A stretch of 15,223 bases of DNA, from the NCBI GenBank assembly GCA_046570105.1, contig JBKHVI010000059.1:1-15223 (forward strand), written 5' to 3'. The DNA is from Bacteriovoracia bacterium (lineage in GTDB: Bacteria; Bdellovibrionota; Bacteriovoracia; Bacteriovoracales; Bacteriovoracaceae). Positions within the stretch are counted from its first letter, which is position 1. Every line of letters starts with the position of its first letter. The position numbers and the translations under genes are program-made. Below are positions 2,058-8,792 of the stretch, one piece after another. A model generated the notes under the pieces. That model searched no databases. It was not told the origin of the DNA and was given only the letters and a program-made list of their open reading frames with translations.

Positions 2058-3056
2058 ATGAGATGGATTTTTCTTTTGGGGTTATTTATGGCCTGTACCA
2101 CAGTGAAGTATGCGACTTCTGAGCATTACGATGGATCACATTTTTTTAATCCATGGGGCGTGAATAACAAGAAGTCTTTTTGGGATGTGCTCAAGTGGAA
2201 GTTCACGACATCAGCTGAAAAATGGCCAACTGAAGTTAAAAATCCAAAGCCACAAATTTTACCTAAACCGACGAGCGGCTTTAATATCACCTGGGTCAAT
2301 CATTCAACCTTTCTCATACAAACTCCGCATCTCAATATTCTAACTGATCCGGTTTGGTCAGAGCGTACCAGTCCTTTTAGTTTTGCAGGTCCCAAACGTA
2401 TTCGCCCGGCCGGAATAGCTTGGGAGGAGTTACCTAAGATCGATGTCGTAGTGGTTTCACATAATCACTATGATCATTTAGATGTGGCCTCGCTGGTAAA
2501 TTTGGAAAAGCGTGATCAACCGCATTTTTATGTCGCCCTTGGGGATAAAAACTGGCTCAGCAAAAAAGGTCTCACACACATCACCGAATTGGATTGGTGG
2601 CAAGTGATTGAGCTTCCTCATTACAGAGTAACCTTTCTACCAGCTCAGCACTGGTCAGCACGCAGTCTGTGGGACAAGAATGAAAGTCTGTGGGGCGCTT
2701 GGGGAATTGAGGTGGAAGGTAAAAAAATCTATCACGCTGGGGATACCGGACTTGGTCCACATTTTAAAGAGACTCGAGAGCGTTGGGGAGCACCTGATTT
2801 AGCGCTTCTTCCGATTGGCGCCTATAATCCTCGCTGGTTTATGAAAGACATGCATATGAATCCTGAGGACGCGGTGGAGGCCTTCAAGCAGCTGGAGGCG
2901 CGCGAAGCCTTTGGAATGCACTTTGGTACGTTTCAATTGACGGACGAGCAATGGGATCAGCCAGAAAAGGATTTGCGCAAAGTCTTAGAAAATGAGGTTG
3001 AGGTCGTGGGAAAATTTCATATTCCCATTATTGGAATGAGTCGCCCTTATCCTTAA
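2058..3056 (+). CDS. MBL-fold metallo-hydrolase, NAPE-PLD/RomA-like, predicted lipoprotein
   Basis: Motifs TWVNHSTFLIQ, LTDPVWSERTSP, the HxHxDH site SHNHYDHLD, PAQHWSAR, YHAGDTG, LPIGAYNPRW, HMNPEDAV and MHFGTFQL. The N-terminus MRWIFLLGLFMAC is lipobox-like with Cys13. Confidence 0.9.
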   Translation: MRWIFLLGLFMACTTVKYATSEHYDGSHFFNPWGVNNKKSFWDVLKWKFTTSAEKWPTEVKNPKPQILPKPTSGFNITWVNHSTFLIQTPHLNILTDPVWSERTSPFSFAGPKRIRPAGIAWEELPKIDVVVVSHNHYDHLDVASLVNLEKRDQPHFYVALGDKNWLSKKGLTHITELDWWQVIELPHYRVTFLPAQHWSARSLWDKNESLWGAWGIEVEGKKIYHAGDTGLGPHFKETRERWGAPDLALLPIGAYNPRWFMKDMHMNPEDAVEAFKQLEAREAFGMHFGTFQLTDEQWDQPEKDLRKVLENEVEVVGKFHIPIIGMSRPYP

Positions 3057-3970
3057 TATGCTTCGACCGTAAATGTCAGTGTATCTTGGTAGTCGCCATC
3101 ATCAAGAGTGGCAAAGGTCCCTAGACGCACACGAATGCGGTAACTGCGACCAGACTGTGAAGTGCCACTATATTCTTGTCCGAGCCAATGAGAGTTATTC
3201 GGTGGAGTAAACCAGCTGCCATTGGCCAAGCGAATCTGATAAGGCACCGCTGTGGTGTGTGGGGTTTTTCTGAGTTGTCCTCCATTGGCCGAAGTCACTC
3301 GCATTCCATAGGGAACATTCGCCTTGATTCGTAGATCTGCACGCAATTCTTGATTGGGTTGCATCTGACCAAAGTCCATGATGTAAACGGTAGATTGTGG
3401 ATCATGCGGAGAGTTTTCCGGCACGATACTCAGTTCAGCATAGCGAGGAACAGTGAAGGCGAGAGTCATCCAGCGTGACGCTTGATAATCAATATCACCA
3501 TTTGCTCTGACAGCATAAACATTCACCGGAAGAGTATCAGTGTAGACACCTGGTGGCACATTAAAGAGGGTGTTTTTAGATTTCACTTCAACGTAAAATG
3601 TACTTTGGTAGTTCACGTTTTTGCTAGGTGCATAGCCGGTAATGTATTCATTGGCCGAGGCATCACCAAAATCTTTCAGCACATTTCCCAGACTCACCGT
3701 GCGGTAGAGATTATAAGTCATAGAGTTGCCGCCGCTATAAGCGCGACGCTGATAGGAGTTGGCCTGGCCTTTGGCAAAATAGAGACGATAATTTTCGCAA
3801 GGAGTTTCAGGTGAGTTTTGTGGGCGAAGTAAACTGAGTGAGTGCGGGAGTACTTGGGCCACATCTTGCACTGAGGTCGTAAAATTCCCTAGACTCAAAT
3901 CGTATTCACAGTTTTGTGCTTGGGCCTTAAGGCCAAGTAGCAAAGTTGTGATAGCAAAAAATATTTTCAT
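3053..3970 (-). CDS. Two-domain tip adhesin/minor pilin of a non-classical chaperone-usher pilus (spore-coat-U/CsuE-like)
   Basis: Signal peptide ends AQA. Domain 1 has Cys21/Cys58, YNLY and PGVYTDTL. Domain 2 resembles the major pilin (YGMRVTSANGGQL...GDYQDTLTFTV vs YQVSVSSANQGKL...GDYSDTVTFTI). It is the last gene after the usher, with an ATGA overlap and a GAGGAGG RBS. Confidence 0.8.
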   Translation of the reverse strand: MKIFFAITTLLLGLKAQAQNCEYDLSLGNFTTSVQDVAQVLPHSLSLLRPQNSPETPCENYRLYFAKGQANSYQRRAYSGGNSMTYNLYRTVSLGNVLKDFGDASANEYITGYAPSKNVNYQSTFYVEVKSKNTLFNVPPGVYTDTLPVNVYAVRANGDIDYQASRWMTLAFTVPRYAELSIVPENSPHDPQSTVYIMDFGQMQPNQELRADLRIKANVPYGMRVTSANGGQLRKTPHTTAVPYQIRLANGSWFTPPNNSHWLGQEYSGTSQSGRSYRIRVRLGTFATLDDGDYQDTLTFTVEAY

Positions 3971-6360
3971 TCTTCCTCCTCAACTCGAACAGCACCTAAT
4001 TGGCGAAGTCCGCGTGAGCGTTGGTCTAGTTTGATATCAAGCGTTTTGAAACCTTCGAGATTTAACTGATAATTACCGGGATTGAGTCCTTCGATGTAGA
4101 ACTGGCCTTCTTGTGAAGTAAAGAATGGTTTTCCGCCAATATCTCCCACTCGAAGTCCTAGCGCTCTTCCTTTGGTGTCGACTAATGTACCGCTCAGTAT
4201 CACTGAGCCTTTGTCTTCAAGTGCGATCAAGTGGGCACTTCGATAAGTAGGATAAACAATAAACTTCTCTTGTACTAAACTGGTGCCCATCTCAAGACCC
4301 GATGGATCGAGTTGAATCTCGCGATACTGATAGGGAAGAAGATTGGTGAAAGTAATCTCTCCCAATGGACCTGATTCCCCTTCCGTGAAAGGAGAAGTGG
4401 AGCGGAGTGCGACTTTCTGACCTTTGAGTTCATCATTAGGCTTAAAAAGCACAAAACTATTTGGTACAGGTCGTGAGAGACCTAAACCGAAATCACCGTC
4501 TTGATAAGCAAAGACAATCGCCTGAGACATACGAGCAATACCGCGTGCTTCAGTATTTCCACTGTTTTCAAATTTAGCCGCTTGCACGCGCGCGCCAAGA
4601 TCGGCGACAGGTGTGGGAACAAAAGCATCGATCTCACCACCATCACGCGAGGGACCTTCTTCAGCGGTAGCGGTCAGGCGAGGAGAGTAGAGACGGTTGC
4701 CGTTGTCTCTGACAGCGGTTAGGCGATTGAGATTATTTTCGGCATCATGAAAGCCCGTGATGAAGTGACTGGCGCTATCAAATGTCCAAGTAAAGAAAGC
4801 ATAGGCCACGTCGTTCCAGCGTTTAAATTCATCACGATTGCGGGCCATGAAAAAACTAATATTCAAATTTCGCCATGCCCTGAGATTAAGGGTTGCGTCC
4901 CAGCCGCGTCGATCATCGAGAGTTTCATCGCGCACTTGACCCAGGCTTGCACCCAGCGAGAGCGTCATCAGCTCTTGAATGGGAATAGTAAAATTACCAG
5001 CGCTCTGTGCTGCCAGATTTCCCTGCATTCCATCGTTCACACTAGTGAAGCCTTTCTCGAAGCGCTCATGACGAAGTGTGAGAGTATAAGAAGAAAATAA
5101 TCGAGAGCCTAAGCTTTGCAATTGCCAAGTCAGAGAACCGGCACCTGCGCTCACATCATTATCACGTGATTGAGCTCCACCTAAAAATAAATTTCCCCAA
5201 TTTGTCGCTAAACCAAGTTCGATCCCGCCGAGAGAGAAATCATCTTGTCTTTGGGCATAACTGCCTGCTGAAAAGGCGCGCGTGACACCATATTGCAAAT
5301 AACCGCTGGTGATTTCATCATCGGTGTAAGTACGACGAAAAGTCATGTCTTGAAAAGGCCTGCCATGAGAGAGCGAGAAGTTCCATTCTTTATGACGAAG
5401 CAGTCCCACAGAAGTGGGGAGACGAAAATCATAGATGCGTTTCTCACCCAGCTCATCCGTTGTCTCAACGAGCACAGTGTTAAGACCATTGATTAAAGGC
5501 ACATCACGCAGATCATAGTTACCGGCCGGCAGCCATTCATCACGAATGAGAATACCATTCACAAAAGTGCGCACCTGAGAGCGCGTTCTCAGTGTGAATT
5601 GGCCCTGGCCCTGAGGAAAAGGCACTTGATAAGGGTCGAGGGTAAAGTTTCGAGCGACATGTACGCCACCAATGGGGCGAGCGGGCATAAAACCAAAACT
5701 GCTGGGGTAAACATCACCCGCTTCAGCGCGCACTCGGTTTTTTTGAAAGTCTTTGACTAGTCGAGTGTCGCCGCGAAACCAGCCTTGTCCTTGAGCATCG
5801 TCGGTGTAGTTCATCTGGCCTTCGAGAACGACGCCTCCGATATTTACAAAACTTTCAAAATAACTTGAGAAGGCCTCGCCTCCCAAAAGATCGGACCCCC
5901 AGGATTTTTCGACACGATAATTAATTGCGCCACCTAGAGGAGCAGGTTTTCTGGCCTCATCACCATAGAAAGCGTCGAAGTCTTCACCGACTTCTAGTTT
6001 TTTAAAACGAGAAAGCTCAGTGGGAACATCGAGCACAAGCACAGCATTTTGTGGGTCATATTTAAGTTTAAAATTTAAATCTTGGGGATTGAGCCAGCCC
6101 GATTTCTTTTCAACTTCGCTCCAAAGACTTTTCTGGACTTGAGCTTTTAATACGATTAACAAAGTTTTTTGTTCGATACTTTCTAGCTTTTCACCTTTGA
6201 GACGAGCTCGAATCTCTCCAATCCGCTGAGATCCCATCATGACAGGAATAGGAGCTTCGTAAACTTGTTCAGCAAAATTAGCTTCTGTGACAGGAATAAT
6301 TTCCTGCGCCCAACTTAAATTGGTAAGTGAGAGAGTGAGGAGAAGAAAAAGTTTATTCAA
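3967..6360 (-). CDS. Outer-membrane fimbrial usher (CsuD/PapC-like)
   Basis: 797 aa with a signal peptide and usher-type motifs FRGDTRLVKD, AGDVYP, GGVHVARNF, the plug region FVNG...LPAGNYDLRDVPLINGLNTV...DELGE, GYLQYGVTRAFSAG and C-terminal NLLPYQYREIQLDP and FFTSQEGQFYIEGLNPGNY. The TTG start overlaps the chaperone stop by 8 bp. Confidence 0.9.
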   Translation of the reverse strand: MNKLFLLLTLSLTNLSWAQEIIPVTEANFAEQVYEAPIPVMMGSQRIGEIRARLKGEKLESIEQKTLLIVLKAQVQKSLWSEVEKKSGWLNPQDLNFKLKYDPQNAVLVLDVPTELSRFKKLEVGEDFDAFYGDEARKPAPLGGAINYRVEKSWGSDLLGGEAFSSYFESFVNIGGVVLEGQMNYTDDAQGQGWFRGDTRLVKDFQKNRVRAEAGDVYPSSFGFMPARPIGGVHVARNFTLDPYQVPFPQGQGQFTLRTRSQVRTFVNGILIRDEWLPAGNYDLRDVPLINGLNTVLVETTDELGEKRIYDFRLPTSVGLLRHKEWNFSLSHGRPFQDMTFRRTYTDDEITSGYLQYGVTRAFSAGSYAQRQDDFSLGGIELGLATNWGNLFLGGAQSRDNDVSAGAGSLTWQLQSLGSRLFSSYTLTLRHERFEKGFTSVNDGMQGNLAAQSAGNFTIPIQELMTLSLGASLGQVRDETLDDRRGWDATLNLRAWRNLNISFFMARNRDEFKRWNDVAYAFFTWTFDSASHFITGFHDAENNLNRLTAVRDNGNRLYSPRLTATAEEGPSRDGGEIDAFVPTPVADLGARVQAAKFENSGNTEARGIARMSQAIVFAYQDGDFGLGLSRPVPNSFVLFKPNDELKGQKVALRSTSPFTEGESGPLGEITFTNLLPYQYREIQLDPSGLEMGTSLVQEKFIVYPTYRSAHLIALEDKGSVILSGTLVDTKGRALGLRVGDIGGKPFFTSQEGQFYIEGLNPGNYQLNLEGFKTLDIKLDQRSRGLRQLGAVRVEEEE

Positions 6361-7036
6361 CTTTTAATTTTCCTTTAAGCTCTGCGCCTTTTAATTCTGG
6401 GTGTGCGGCAATGGTGAAGACACGCTTAGAACCTGCCAGCACGTTTTCGCCGGCTAAACCTTTGAGTGCTTCGCCATTGAGATTGATGGTCTTTTTTCCG
6501 GCGGTCACACTCAAGGTGGGATTCAACAACAAGCGATGTTGCGAGCCTTTGTTTTCGATATGAACCTTAAGGCCATCTTTTGATTCTTCAATAACTCCTA
6601 ACACCAAACTCGCTTCGGTTTCACCCGGATTTACATAGAGAGCGGCCTTGTAGCGCATCAGCATTTTGATGCCACTGCCTTTTTGTTTCTTGCCATCGAC
6701 TTTAAGTGGCAACTGTTCGGCGACTACACGAAAAGCTTTTTCGAGATTGGGTTTTTCTCCCGTCCATTGAACGCGAATGGTGCGCTTTTCTTTAGGAGGC
6801 AAAATAAGTTGCGGGGGAAAAGCCACTAGCTCACTGGTTTTAGCGTTGTCTTCTTGGCCATCAGTTTTTTGCTTTCGATCCGTCACACTGATCACAACGG
6901 CCATCGGCTCATTGGTGGGATTATCTAATAAAAACTGGGCTTCTTTTTGTCCCTGCGAAAGTTCGATGGTCTGAGACATCGGAGTGAATGAGAAACTTAC
7001 GAGTAGGGGAAGAAAAAAATAAATGAAACGCGTCAT
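6353..7036 (-). CDS. Periplasmic pilus assembly chaperone (CsuC/EcpB/PapD superfamily)
   Basis: FPPQLILPPKEKRTIRVQWTG, EKAFRVVAEQLP, a G1 donor-like strand IKMLMRYKAALYV, and domain-2 motifs IENKGSQH and NVLAGSKRVF. RBS AAAGGAG. Lies between the pilin and the usher. Confidence 0.9.
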   Translation of the reverse strand: MTRFIYFFLPLLVSFSFTPMSQTIELSQGQKEAQFLLDNPTNEPMAVVISVTDRKQKTDGQEDNAKTSELVAFPPQLILPPKEKRTIRVQWTGEKPNLEKAFRVVAEQLPLKVDGKKQKGSGIKMLMRYKAALYVNPGETEASLVLGVIEESKDGLKVHIENKGSQHRLLLNPTLSVTAGKKTINLNGEALKGLAGENVLAGSKRVFTIAAHPELKGAELKGKLKVE

Positions 7037-7062: not shown

Positions 7063-7091
7063 ATAATAGCAAAGAGATCTCTAAGGGTGAA
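7063..7091 (-). promoter_or_regulatory. Putative sigma70 promoter for chaperone-usher-adhesin
   Basis: Minus strand reads TTCACC(7091-7086)-N17-TATTAT(7068-7063) with an extended TGc immediately before the -10, then AAAGGAG and ATG 7036. Confidence 0.5.
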
Positions 7092-7302
7092 TCACCGTGA
7101 TGAGAGTAATGCCATTTTTATCTACTCTCTCGATGGTGGGTGTGGCCTGAGTGGAGGGGTGATTGGAGTGCGTGACGAGAGTGCCGTCTGAATTGATATG
7201 AATGCGGTAGATGCTAGGGACATGCGCTCGTAAACTCAGGGTGGCCGCTTCGTGGGCGAGGGCGCTGAGAGAGAATAGAAGCGTAGCGAGCCACAGTTTC
7301 AT
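7081..7302 (-). CDS. Small secreted pilin-like protein ('mini-pilin', about 57 aa mature)
   Basis: Signal peptide MKLWLATLLFSLSALA. The mature N-terminus HEAATLSLRAHVPSIYRIHIN aligns without gaps to the major pilin ATTGTLLLRGTVPRLLEITVN (8/21 identical). It is co-oriented inside the pilus cluster. Confidence 0.75.
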   Translation of the reverse strand: MKLWLATLLFSLSALAHEAATLSLRAHVPSIYRIHINSDGTLVTHSNHPSTQATPTIERVDKNGITLITVIHP

Positions 7303-7309
7303 AGTAAAC

Positions 7310-7337
7310 GTGTCGGCTATCGAGAGAGATTACTTGA
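7310..7337 (-). promoter_or_regulatory. Putative sigma28 (FliA)-type promoter for the mini-pilin
   Basis: Minus strand reads TCAAG(7337-7333)-N15-GCCGACAC(7317-7310), then 7 nt and ATG 7302. It resembles TAAA/TCAAG...GCCGATAA with a spacer about 1 nt longer than canonical. Confidence 0.45.
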
Positions 7338-7358
7338 GCGATATGACTAAGTACTCAT

Positions 7359-7388
7359 AAAAAAAGGGCCCCCAGTGGAGGCCCTTTC
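7359..7388 (-). terminator. Rho-independent terminator after the major pilin gene
   Basis: Minus strand GAAAGGGCCTCCACTGGGGGCCCTTTTTTT is a GC-rich stem-loop followed by T7, starting 13 nt after the pilin stop. Confidence 0.85.
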
Positions 7389-7401
7389 GGGGATTTCAAT
7401 T

Positions 7402-7869
7402 CTAGTTAGCAGCGATCGTGAAAGTCACTGTGTCTGAGTAGTCGCCTTCGATCAACAAGTCATGAGCGATACCCGTGTATGAGATATCAACGTTACGGTT
7501 GTTGTTGTTGGCACCAGCTCCGGCGTAAGTGAATGTCTGGCCAGTCGCCAAGTTAACAGCGTTACCGTTGTAGCGAAGAGAGTAGTTCAAAACGCTTGTA
7601 CCGACTGATTCATGAACAAGCTTGCCTTGGTTCGCTGATGAAACACTGACTTGGTAACCAGTGTTTGAGTTAGCTTTTTCATTCACAACGGCCACCAATG
7701 TATTGGCCTGAGTAGTATCAAGTGGAAGAGTTGAAGCGATCGCCTGTGGGTTTACAGTGATTTCAAGAAGACGAGGAACCGTACCTCTTAAAAGTAACGT
7801 ACCCGTGGTGGCCGCAAAGGCACTTGAAAGTGTGAGAGCTGCAATTGCGATGGTGAATAGCTTCTTCAT
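7402..7869 (-). CDS. Major pilin subunit of a non-classical chaperone-usher pilus (spore-coat-U/Csu-like fold, cysteine-free)
   Basis: Signal peptide ends AFA. Alternating hydrophobic N-terminal donor strand TLLLRGTVP, LNYSLRY, and C-terminal GDYSDTVTFTI (G-x-Y-x-D-T strand). It is the first gene of the cluster and has its own terminator. Confidence 0.85.
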   Translation of the reverse strand: MKKLFTIAIAALTLSSAFAATTGTLLLRGTVPRLLEITVNPQAIASTLPLDTTQANTLVAVVNEKANSNTGYQVSVSSANQGKLVHESVGTSVLNYSLRYNGNAVNLATGQTFTYAGAGANNNNRNVDISYTGIAHDLLIEGDYSDTVTFTIAAN

Positions 7870-7924: not shown

Positions 7925-7941
7925 TTCAAATATTGTGCCAG
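7925..7941 (-). promoter_or_regulatory. Putative sigma54 (-24/-12) promoter of the major pilin
   Basis: Minus strand CTGGCACAATATTTGAA is TGGCAC-N5-TTGA, with the GG-N10 spacing exact and GA in place of GC. The predicted start is near 7914, about 45 nt before ATG 7869. Confidence 0.65.
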
Positions 7942-8144: not shown

Positions 8145-8792
8145 ATGCCTCAATCAATCGGAGGCATGATGGCAAAACAACTCAATCTCAATATTTATAA
8201 AGGATCGCGTGGTGGCAGAAGACCTGGTGCTGGTCGCAAACGAATTCATTCCAAAGGCGTCGCCCACCGAGAGCGCGAGAAAGTTCAAATGCGACACGGC
8301 CTGCATGTGAATTTTAAATACCGCACTTCTATTCGTCATAAGAAAGGACTGAGTCTTTTGAAAAGGGCGATTCTCAATTCCCGTAAGATGGGCCTGAGAG
8401 TGATTCACTTCTCGCTGCAAAGTAATCATATTCATTTGATTTTAGAAGCGCAGGATAATGCCATCCTCACGAGAGGCATGCGCTCCCTCACGGTGACGAT
8501 CGCCAAAGGTTTGGATAAAGGACGCGTGCAGGTAGAGCGTTATCATTTGCATGTTCTTCGTTCCGTGCGTGAAACAAAGAATGCCGTTTATTATGTCCTC
8601 TTCAATGAGCAAAAGCACTCTGGATTGAAAAAGGCATATGTCGACGGGTACTCATCGTTGGGCGTGGTGCGAGATTTAAAGAAGTTGGCAAAAGGGAAGA
8701 GAGTAACAGTGATATTAAAAAGAATCAGCGAGGTGAGTTTTTTAGACTCACCTCACAGTTGGACTATGAAGCGTGTGAGTCTTTTGCTTTAA
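8145..8792 (+). CDS. HUH/Y1 single-strand transposase-family protein (RAYT/IS200-like), stand-alone; true start may be ATG 8166 or 8169
   Basis: LHVNFK first strand, HUH motif QSNHIHLILEA, ERYH, catalytic-Tyr helix AVYYVLFN and the DGYSS motif typical of RAYT-type Y1 proteins. Basic N-terminal tail RGGRRPGAGRK. GGAGG at 8160-8164. No tnpB and no clear element ends. Confidence 0.8.
   Translation: MPQSIGGMMAKQLNLNIYKGSRGGRRPGAGRKRIHSKGVAHREREKVQMRHGLHVNFKYRTSIRHKKGLSLLKRAILNSRKMGLRVIHFSLQSNHIHLILEAQDNAILTRGMRSLTVTIAKGLDKGRVQVERYHLHVLRSVRETKNAVYYVLFNEQKHSGLKKAYVDGYSSLGVVRDLKKLAKGKRVTVILKRISEVSFLDSPHSWTMKRVSLLL

Follow-up and report, generated by a model that had tools for sequence, protein, structure and literature searches.

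A conserved short pilin-like protein of an archaic-type chaperone-usher cluster in Bacteriovoracaceae as a candidate chain terminator

What can an apparently secreted protein of 73 residues, encoded between a major pilin and a periplasmic chaperone, contribute to a chaperone-usher fibre? The window, that is, the whole stretch of 15,223 nucleotides analysed here (contig JBKHVI010000059.1 of assembly GCA_046570105.1, Bacteriovoracia bacterium), raises this question with a gene whose product a sequence-only reading had described as a minimal pilin that could terminate, cap or inhibit the growing fibre. That interpretation is partly supported by the present analysis. We consider it very probable that the protein is a real donor-strand-bearing subunit of this system, and we give an even chance to its being a chain terminator or base cap. 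The short reading frame that had been proposed is real, and the list of open reading frames together with Pfam matches places it second in a five-gene chaperone-usher cluster on the minus strand:

7402..7869, minus strand: major pilin, 155 aa, no Pfam family, pilin fold by AF2 and Foldseek
7081..7302, minus strand: mini-subunit gene, 73 aa, ATG start, no Pfam match
6353..7036, minus strand: PapD-like periplasmic chaperone, 227 aa (PF00345, E 1e-13)
3967..6360, minus strand: outer-membrane usher, 797 aa (PF00577, E 2.9e-10)
3053..3970, minus strand: two-domain SCPU protein, presumed tip adhesin, 305 aa (PF05229, E 7.4e-9)

The chaperone gene has its own GGAG ribosome-binding site, 44 nt past the stop codon of the mini gene. 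Among solved structures, the only sequence relatives of the chaperone are CsuC (two sequences, E 2.3e-6), and because of these relatives and of the SCPU domain in the cluster, the system is placed nearest the archaic class. The AF2 model of the pilin (pLDDT 81.6) matched chaperone-usher pilins of all classes in Foldseek, 12 chains having E <= 0.001, with CfaB best at 4e-5, CsuA/B at 6.9e-4 and CupE1 at 1.8e-3; the fold is therefore that of a pilin, and the class is not assigned by the fold alone. A profile search of PDB sequences with the pilins and the 305-aa protein gave no matches, and with the pilin alone chance matches only. The pilin carries the motif L-x-L-R/K-G-x-V-P on its donor strand and GDYSDT on its last strand, while the 305-aa SCPU protein is without an N-terminal donor motif and has L-R-x-x-A-x-V-P at residues 211-220 and a GDYQDT strand at its C-terminus. 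Next to the promoter region of the pilin, on the plus strand, lies a 215-aa open reading frame (8145-8792) with a weak match to an IS200-like Y1 transposase (PF01797, E 2.9e-4, under the curated cut-off).

The mini gene itself divides into the following parts:

7255-7302, minus strand: signal peptide, approximately residues 1-16
7210-7254, minus strand: N-terminal extension, putative donor strand, residues 17-31, motif L-x-L-R-A-x-V-P
7084-7209, minus strand: predicted four-strand body, residues 32-73
7081-7083, minus strand: stop codon

As had been claimed, the N-terminus of the mini protein resembles a signal peptide, and AF2 models it as a helix at residues 2-16. If both proteins are cleaved at AxA-type sites, which were assigned by eye, the mature chains are 57 aa for the mini protein and 136 aa for the pilin, in agreement with the earlier estimate, the former being about 40% of the latter. 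The register match reported for the two mature N-termini is exact, with 8 of 21 positions identical, a level reached by 1 of 20,000 shuffles of the mature pilin in register and by 41 of 20,000 anywhere, and residues L22, L24, A26 and V28 of the mini protein alternate in register with L25, L27, G29 and V31 of the pilin. BLASTP gave no alignment of the two proteins. hhalign aligned them at 97.3% (E 2.6e-11, 40 columns) with their signal peptides and at 93.6% (E 2.2e-7, 22 columns) once these were removed; the 22 columns cover exactly the donor strand and the next strand, and nothing further aligns confidently. Judged from these alignments, the mature N-terminus of the mini protein is homologous to the donor strand and first strand of the pilin. 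A BLASTP match at E 0.02 also links the mini protein to residues 211-243 of the 305-aa SCPU protein. In 3 of 22 loci the mini protein has no Pro after the conserved Val, and all three are among the 6 in which the adjacent pilin is Pro-less; this co-absence was seen by eye among related loci and is only a hint. The mini protein thus shares with pilins a signal peptide followed by an alternating hydrophobic N-terminal extension, and it is encoded beside a PapD-like chaperone and an usher.

Conserved short homologues, which the earlier reading had asked to be sought, exist. A profile search of 1.84 billion cluster representatives retrieved 46 representatives at E <= 0.001, all of 51-90 aa; nearly all match through the last residue, and none is a full-length pilin. 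Near-invariant positions across these relatives are L22, L24, R25, V28, P29, N47 and the final P73, and one homologue of 73 aa is 68% identical. The relatives that carry a name are all annotated 'hypothetical protein', and neither Pfam nor NCBIfam holds a family for the mini protein. Its own genome has a single copy. Six of ten same-genus genomes contain a stop-free match that starts at residues 1-5 and runs to residue 73 with 36-48% identity; no match was seen in the other four, which have a completeness of 80-99%, although G008 among them did match the profile later. For the three pairs with the least saturation, the recommended dN/dS comparison (Nei-Gojobori) gave 0.20, 0.20 and 0.21; most other pairs were saturated. 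The values for pilin and chaperone are 0.03 and 0.04, respectively. The gene is under purifying selection, and by this measure the mini body changes at about five times the rate of the neighbouring genes. Contigs of four other samples show 8 variants inside the reading frame among the best supported 40 of 104 differences over 1001 bases; all 8 fall at third positions and are synonymous.

The body of the protein is where it departs from a pilin. AF2, run on an alignment of 8 sequences (pLDDT 75), leaves residues 17-31 unpaired after the signal helix and then predicts strands at 32-36, 42-46, 56-62 and 65-71, that is, four short strands in 42 residues. A pilin has an incomplete Ig-like body of ~120-150 residues with an acceptor groove, and the mini protein, judged by its length and its model, appears to have no such body. 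Its model found no PDB match with E <= 0.001 in Foldseek and reached a best Z of 2.2 in a wide VIA-align search, results that are silent on fold novelty. The mini protein also lacks what marks SCPU or archaic pilins, a PF05229 domain with a GDYxDT-type C-terminal strand: PF05229 did not match the mini protein and does not appear in the list of 10 families for the 46 relatives. The earlier statement that it has no C-terminal GDYxDT strand holds for the motif, which is absent here and present in the pilin and the 305-aa protein, but not for the strand: the protein ends in strand 65-71, and T69, V70, H72 and P73 are invariant in 8 close homologues. This C-terminal strand may be the counterpart of the last strand of the pilin. 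Calling the protein 'donor strand only' was too strong, since it keeps a conserved strand at its end.

The genomic setting of the gene is conserved as well. The close relatives belong to Bacteriovoracaceae, and in L002-L007 the gene again follows the last pilin and precedes the chaperone. In some species of the genus, represented by L002 (766-2213), L003 (38-1456) and L004 (450-1427), it comes after two or three pilin paralogues in tandem; they are 46-53% identical to the pilin of the window, which has one pilin. When 401 genomes from the phylum were searched with the profile, 60 had a match, a tally that includes pilin N-termini. In loci L030-L058, the gene directly upstream of the chaperone encodes 67-87 aa in 21 of 29 and 99-121 aa in 7 of 29 (some of the latter lengths are inflated by upstream start codons), and no short gene was detected there in the remaining one. 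A full-length pilin at this position, which would have made the mini gene look like a decayed duplicate, was thus sought and never seen, a short gene standing upstream of the chaperone in 28 of 29 loci; its placement after the last pilin applies to loci where a pilin was seen. As the protein at this position has 99-121 aa in 7 of the 29, being so small is not a requirement. The C-terminal endings of the mini proteins vary by lineage, but in each case the chain finishes with an alternating strand. In L043, L044, L053 and L057 the gene upstream of the chaperone encodes 117-121 aa, with an ending that resembles the last strand of the pilin; hhalign of these forms against the pilin and the mini protein aligned the N-terminal part alone with confidence. 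Such intermediate forms could be a clue to the origin of the short one.

The mini gene reaches beyond this family. In Bdellovibrio, of which an isolate carries the cluster, a 73-aa mini gene again lies directly upstream of the chaperone, and the pilin gene is found on the other strand, at the opposite end of the cluster, so that the mini gene occurs in two families of the phylum:

7972-8193 of L059, plus strand: Bdellovibrio mini gene
12405-12911 of L059, minus strand: Bdellovibrio pilin, 168 aa

In L059 the pilin gene is convergent and follows the tip-protein gene, and the mini gene follows a 655-aa histidine-kinase-like gene. The expression table of B. bacteriovorus HD100 has no such cluster at the syntenic site, where Bd0193 (kinase-like) is followed by Bd0194 and unrelated genes. 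A search with the pilin alignment returned the 10 same-genus genomes, two Spirochaetaceae loci and one weak Gemmiger match. In a related cluster of one Spirochaetaceae genome, whose pilin is 41% identical, the pilin gene leads directly to the chaperone gene across a 32-nt gap and there is no mini gene; this pilus type can therefore dispense with the mini protein. Just upstream of the Spirochaetaceae pilin in L027 (5234-6769, plus strand), a 511-aa protein has a receiver-like N-terminus and a GAFTGA stretch, which we take to be typical of sigma-54 activators.

Two known operons place subunit genes at this site: fimI lies between the major pilin and chaperone genes of the fim operon, and in the Csu operon csuA and csuB have the major pilin gene on one side and the chaperone gene on the other. 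The mini gene has the position of fimI. That it equally has the position of csuA and csuB speaks for a different role, namely an adaptor or embedded minor subunit that would donate its N-terminal strand, accept a neighbour beside its C-terminal strand, and either join tip and rod or form part of the rod itself, the role proposed for CsuA/CsuB and CupE2/CupE3. The strand after the donor strand and the conserved C-terminal strand, both kept by the mini protein, are the pair that flanks the groove in a pilin, and the 99-121 aa forms at the same position fit this role too. However, four short strands in 42 residues cannot build a two-sheet pilin body, and no similarity to the pilin was found past the first 22 mature residues. 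We regard an adaptor as unlikely.

Putative regulatory signals in the window lie on either side of the pilin gene and upstream of the mini gene:

7926..7940, minus strand: sigma-54-like -24/-12 site, TGGCAC, 5 nt, TTGA, ~70 nt upstream of the pilin start
7359..7384, minus strand: intrinsic-terminator-like hairpin after the pilin gene, 8-bp G+C-rich stem, 3-nt loop, 7 U
7311..7338, minus strand: promoter-like site, CTCAAG (7333-7338), 16 nt, CCGACA (7311-7316)

The pilin site was recognised by eye, with what we take to be the sigma-54 -24/-12 consensus. The strict pattern occurs in 9 of 16 loci, with near matches by eye in 6 of the 7 others, the exception being L031; in the window and in L004-L007, L033, L039, L041 and L046 it lies 59-75 nt upstream of the first pilin start. 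The hairpin stands between the pilin gene and the mini gene, the minus strand of 7303-7405 folding at -26.6 kcal/mol (z = -2.1), and similar hairpins occupy the same gap in L005, L006 and L007; a consensus scan did not list the hairpin at 7359-7384. Control by a riboswitch was considered and set aside, Rfam giving two sub-threshold matches only, both on the terminator hairpin. Downstream of it, the -10-like part of the promoter-like site stops 8 nt before the ATG of the mini gene, with no Shine-Dalgarno sequence. By eye, a motif of the form [C/T]T[A/C/T]AAG, 16 nt, CCGA-type, ending 5-9 nt before the mini ATG, was found in 15 of 15 loci (the window, L002-L007, L031, L033-L035, L041, L042, L045 and L051). 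It matches the attack-phase consensus of B. bacteriovorus, TTAAG-N16-CCGATA, which the excerpted text of the source reports in 92 of 140 attack-phase promoters and assigns to FliA (PMC3627812). In its own genome the motif occurs 42 times against ~15 expected from a crude Markov-1 simulation, and an open reading frame of at least 50 aa begins within 60 nt of 30 of the 42 occurrences. Many of these 30 reading frames begin just 2-10 nt after the motif.

The mini site is thus probably an attack-phase promoter of the FliA (sigma-28) type, and a leaderless or near-leaderless transcript starting there would open an operon of mini, chaperone, usher and tip genes. The rod subunit and the assembly genes seem to be under different sigma factors. 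Co-transcription of the mini gene with the tip protein and not with the pilin, if these signals act as they look, would suit an adaptor. The same site bears on whether the mini gene might be a decayed pilin duplicate or a functionless chance reading frame, an idea that could appeal to the short stretch shared with the pilin at the N-terminus, to the empty BLASTP comparison and to the lack of a named family. It is contradicted by the 46 representatives that are all short, by the dN/dS of about 0.2, by the synonymous character of the 8 listed variants, by the promoter-like site in 15 of 15 loci and by the presence of the gene in two families of the phylum; we therefore hold it to be very improbable.

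If the mini protein carries a donor strand, this strand should fit a pilin groove. A complex was predicted between the pilin stripped of its donor strand (residues 33-155) and the mature mini protein (residues 18-73). Its ipSAE was 0.93 in each of three runs, and none of 3 controls scored above 0.02. The mark that it reached is attained by 116 of 157 solved complexes and, among mismatched pairs, by 2 of 215. The runs shared at least 98% of their contacts, with a partner pLDDT of at least 79. In the predicted interface, residues 18-31, 33, 45 and 47-49 of the mini protein face residues 35-50 and 136-153 of the pilin, and the pilin:mini contacts 148:22, 146:24, 144:26 and 142:28 run antiparallel to the last strand of the pilin, which is how the donor strand of a pilin fills the groove of its neighbour. 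The near-invariant N47 falls within this interface. The mini donor strand is accordingly predicted, in these models, to insert in the pilin groove, as the earlier reading had proposed; three of the outcomes it had set against a mini-pilin were examined, and none refutes the idea. Because solved donor-strand complexes exist, the pass may reflect likeness to them, and any pilin-like N-terminus, including the pilin's own strand, would probably pass, so the prediction cannot tell whether the protein is a terminator, an adaptor or an inhibitor.

An inhibitor of this kind would be a periplasmic competitor outside the fibre, plugging pilin grooves or that of the tip protein and thereby damping or timing assembly, or protecting subunits while the usher is idle. 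The predicted filling of the pilin groove is what such a competitor would need, the protein may be too small for delivery by the chaperone, and its promoter-like site is apart from that of the pilin. On the other hand, the conserved C-terminal strand and the conserved Asn in the body suggest more than a free peptide, and even in clusters whose pilin gene has been relocated the mini gene remains in tight linkage with those of the chaperone and the usher. We regard this reading, too, as unlikely.

The role that we favour for the mini protein is that of a subunit which ends the chain. After export and cleavage of the signal peptide, a 57-residue protein with a free N-terminal strand would be left, whose donor strand copies that of the pilin in its groove-facing residues (L, L, A/G and V) and in its distance from the mature N-terminus. 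By ordinary donor-strand exchange, this strand would slot into the groove left open by the last pilin, or by the tip protein, and pair antiparallel with the last strand of that subunit. The remaining 42 residues, with their four short strands, most likely offer no groove for another subunit, and incorporation of the mini protein would therefore stop chain growth and cap the base of the fibre. The parts of such a fibre would be of three kinds: a tip restricted to accepting a strand, a rod subunit able both to donate and to accept one, and a base cap restricted to donating. The C-terminal strand would probably be gripped by the chaperone for delivery to the usher, although a body of 42 residues may be too small to hold the chaperone. 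As the first gene of the chaperone-usher operon, the mini gene may also seem to yield amounts that are high for a terminator. We infer the missing groove, the chaperone binding and the termination itself. It is very probable that the gene product is a genuine, conserved minor component of a chaperone-usher fibre of the archaic type in Bacteriovoracaceae, and its gene family is shared by Bdellovibrio; the even chance given above applies to the role of terminator or base cap.

An extension of the terminator role is that the mini protein would also release the fibre. Known terminators remain lodged at the usher under their chaperone cap, whereas a donor-only cap with a four-strand body could follow the last pilin through the usher pore. 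Its incorporation would then set the length of the fibre and free the finished fibre from the cell, and the pairing of a sigma-54-like site at the pilin gene with a FliA-type site at the operon could let predators alternate between short, capped tip complexes and long fibres that are shed. We find this doubtful; were it true, archaic chaperone-usher pili would thereby gain their first described terminator.

Among chaperone-usher pili the archaic class is the most widespread, and Csu and CupE drive the biofilms of hospital pathogens; we know of no chain terminator for pili of this class. In its excerpted text, a 2023 structural paper states that the existence of a PapH-like terminator in archaic pili is undetermined (PMC10104325). 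The mini family offers a concrete terminator candidate for these pili, one in which the donor strand is kept and the acceptor body dropped, and, if confirmed, it would be the smallest unit able to join donor-strand exchange. A natural 57-residue protein that plugs the groove, or its N-terminal peptide, could serve as a template for assembly inhibitors. The cluster itself points to an uncharacterised adhesive fibre of predatory bacteria, probably made in the attack phase. A literature search combining Bdellovibrio with chaperone-usher gave no paper on such a fibre, judged by title, and a search of the supplements of PMC3627812 found no 'usher' and no fimbrial chaperone, with type-IV-like 'fimbrial assembly' genes elsewhere only.

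A short protein beside a classical chaperone-usher cluster invites comparison:

8516-8797 of L062, minus strand: yehE of E. coli K-12 (YehE, DUF2574, PF10836), 93 aa, beside the fimbrial genes yehDCBA

A feature ranking in a protein atlas, useful as a lead only, placed a DUF2574 cluster second for the mini protein (0.89). Like the mini protein, YehE is short, secreted and encoded beside a chaperone-usher cluster, and its mature N-terminus resembles the pilin YehD by eye, with a BLASTP E of 1.3 that is not significant; unlike the mini gene, yehE lies upstream of the pilin gene and not between pilin and chaperone. A relationship of the two is not supported: hhalign of the mini family against YehE gave a probability of 12.8%, and 1 of 46 mini family members matches PF10836, at E 0.023, short of the curated cut-off. 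In a classical system YehE could play the part of a comparable short subunit; a text search of the available literature found no mention of 'DUF2574'.

Closer in class are the minor subunits of archaic pili. Those of Acinetobacter Csu pili are described as adaptors in the excerpted source (PMC9452303), and CupE2 and CupE3 of Pseudomonas, 39% and 30% similar to CupE1, are predicted to polymerise according to the excerpt of another (PMC10104325). Like the mini gene, the genes of CsuA/CsuB and CupE2/CupE3 lie between the major pilin and the chaperone of an archaic-type cluster, but they encode full-length pilins, whereas the mini protein matches the pilin over the first 22 mature residues only. 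The closest functional parallels are FimI of type 1 pili and PapH of P pili, chain terminators and anchors, which in the excerpted text of one paper are full-size subunits, incorporated last, whose groove stays filled by the chaperone, FimI termination resting on a strong chaperone-subunit interface (PMC12122975). FimI and PapH are secreted, as the mini protein appears to be, and give their N-terminal strand to the last rod subunit without being extended. They differ in having full-size pilin folds and in serving classical pili, whereas the mini protein has a 42-residue body in an archaic-type system and shows no detectable sequence relation to the classical fimbrial subunit families: no classical fimbrial Pfam family matched it at E <= 1 or appears among the 10 families listed for its 46 relatives. 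Should the mini protein both end and release the fibre, it would stand beside FimI and PapH as a new principle of termination, with no groove at all in place of a blocked one.
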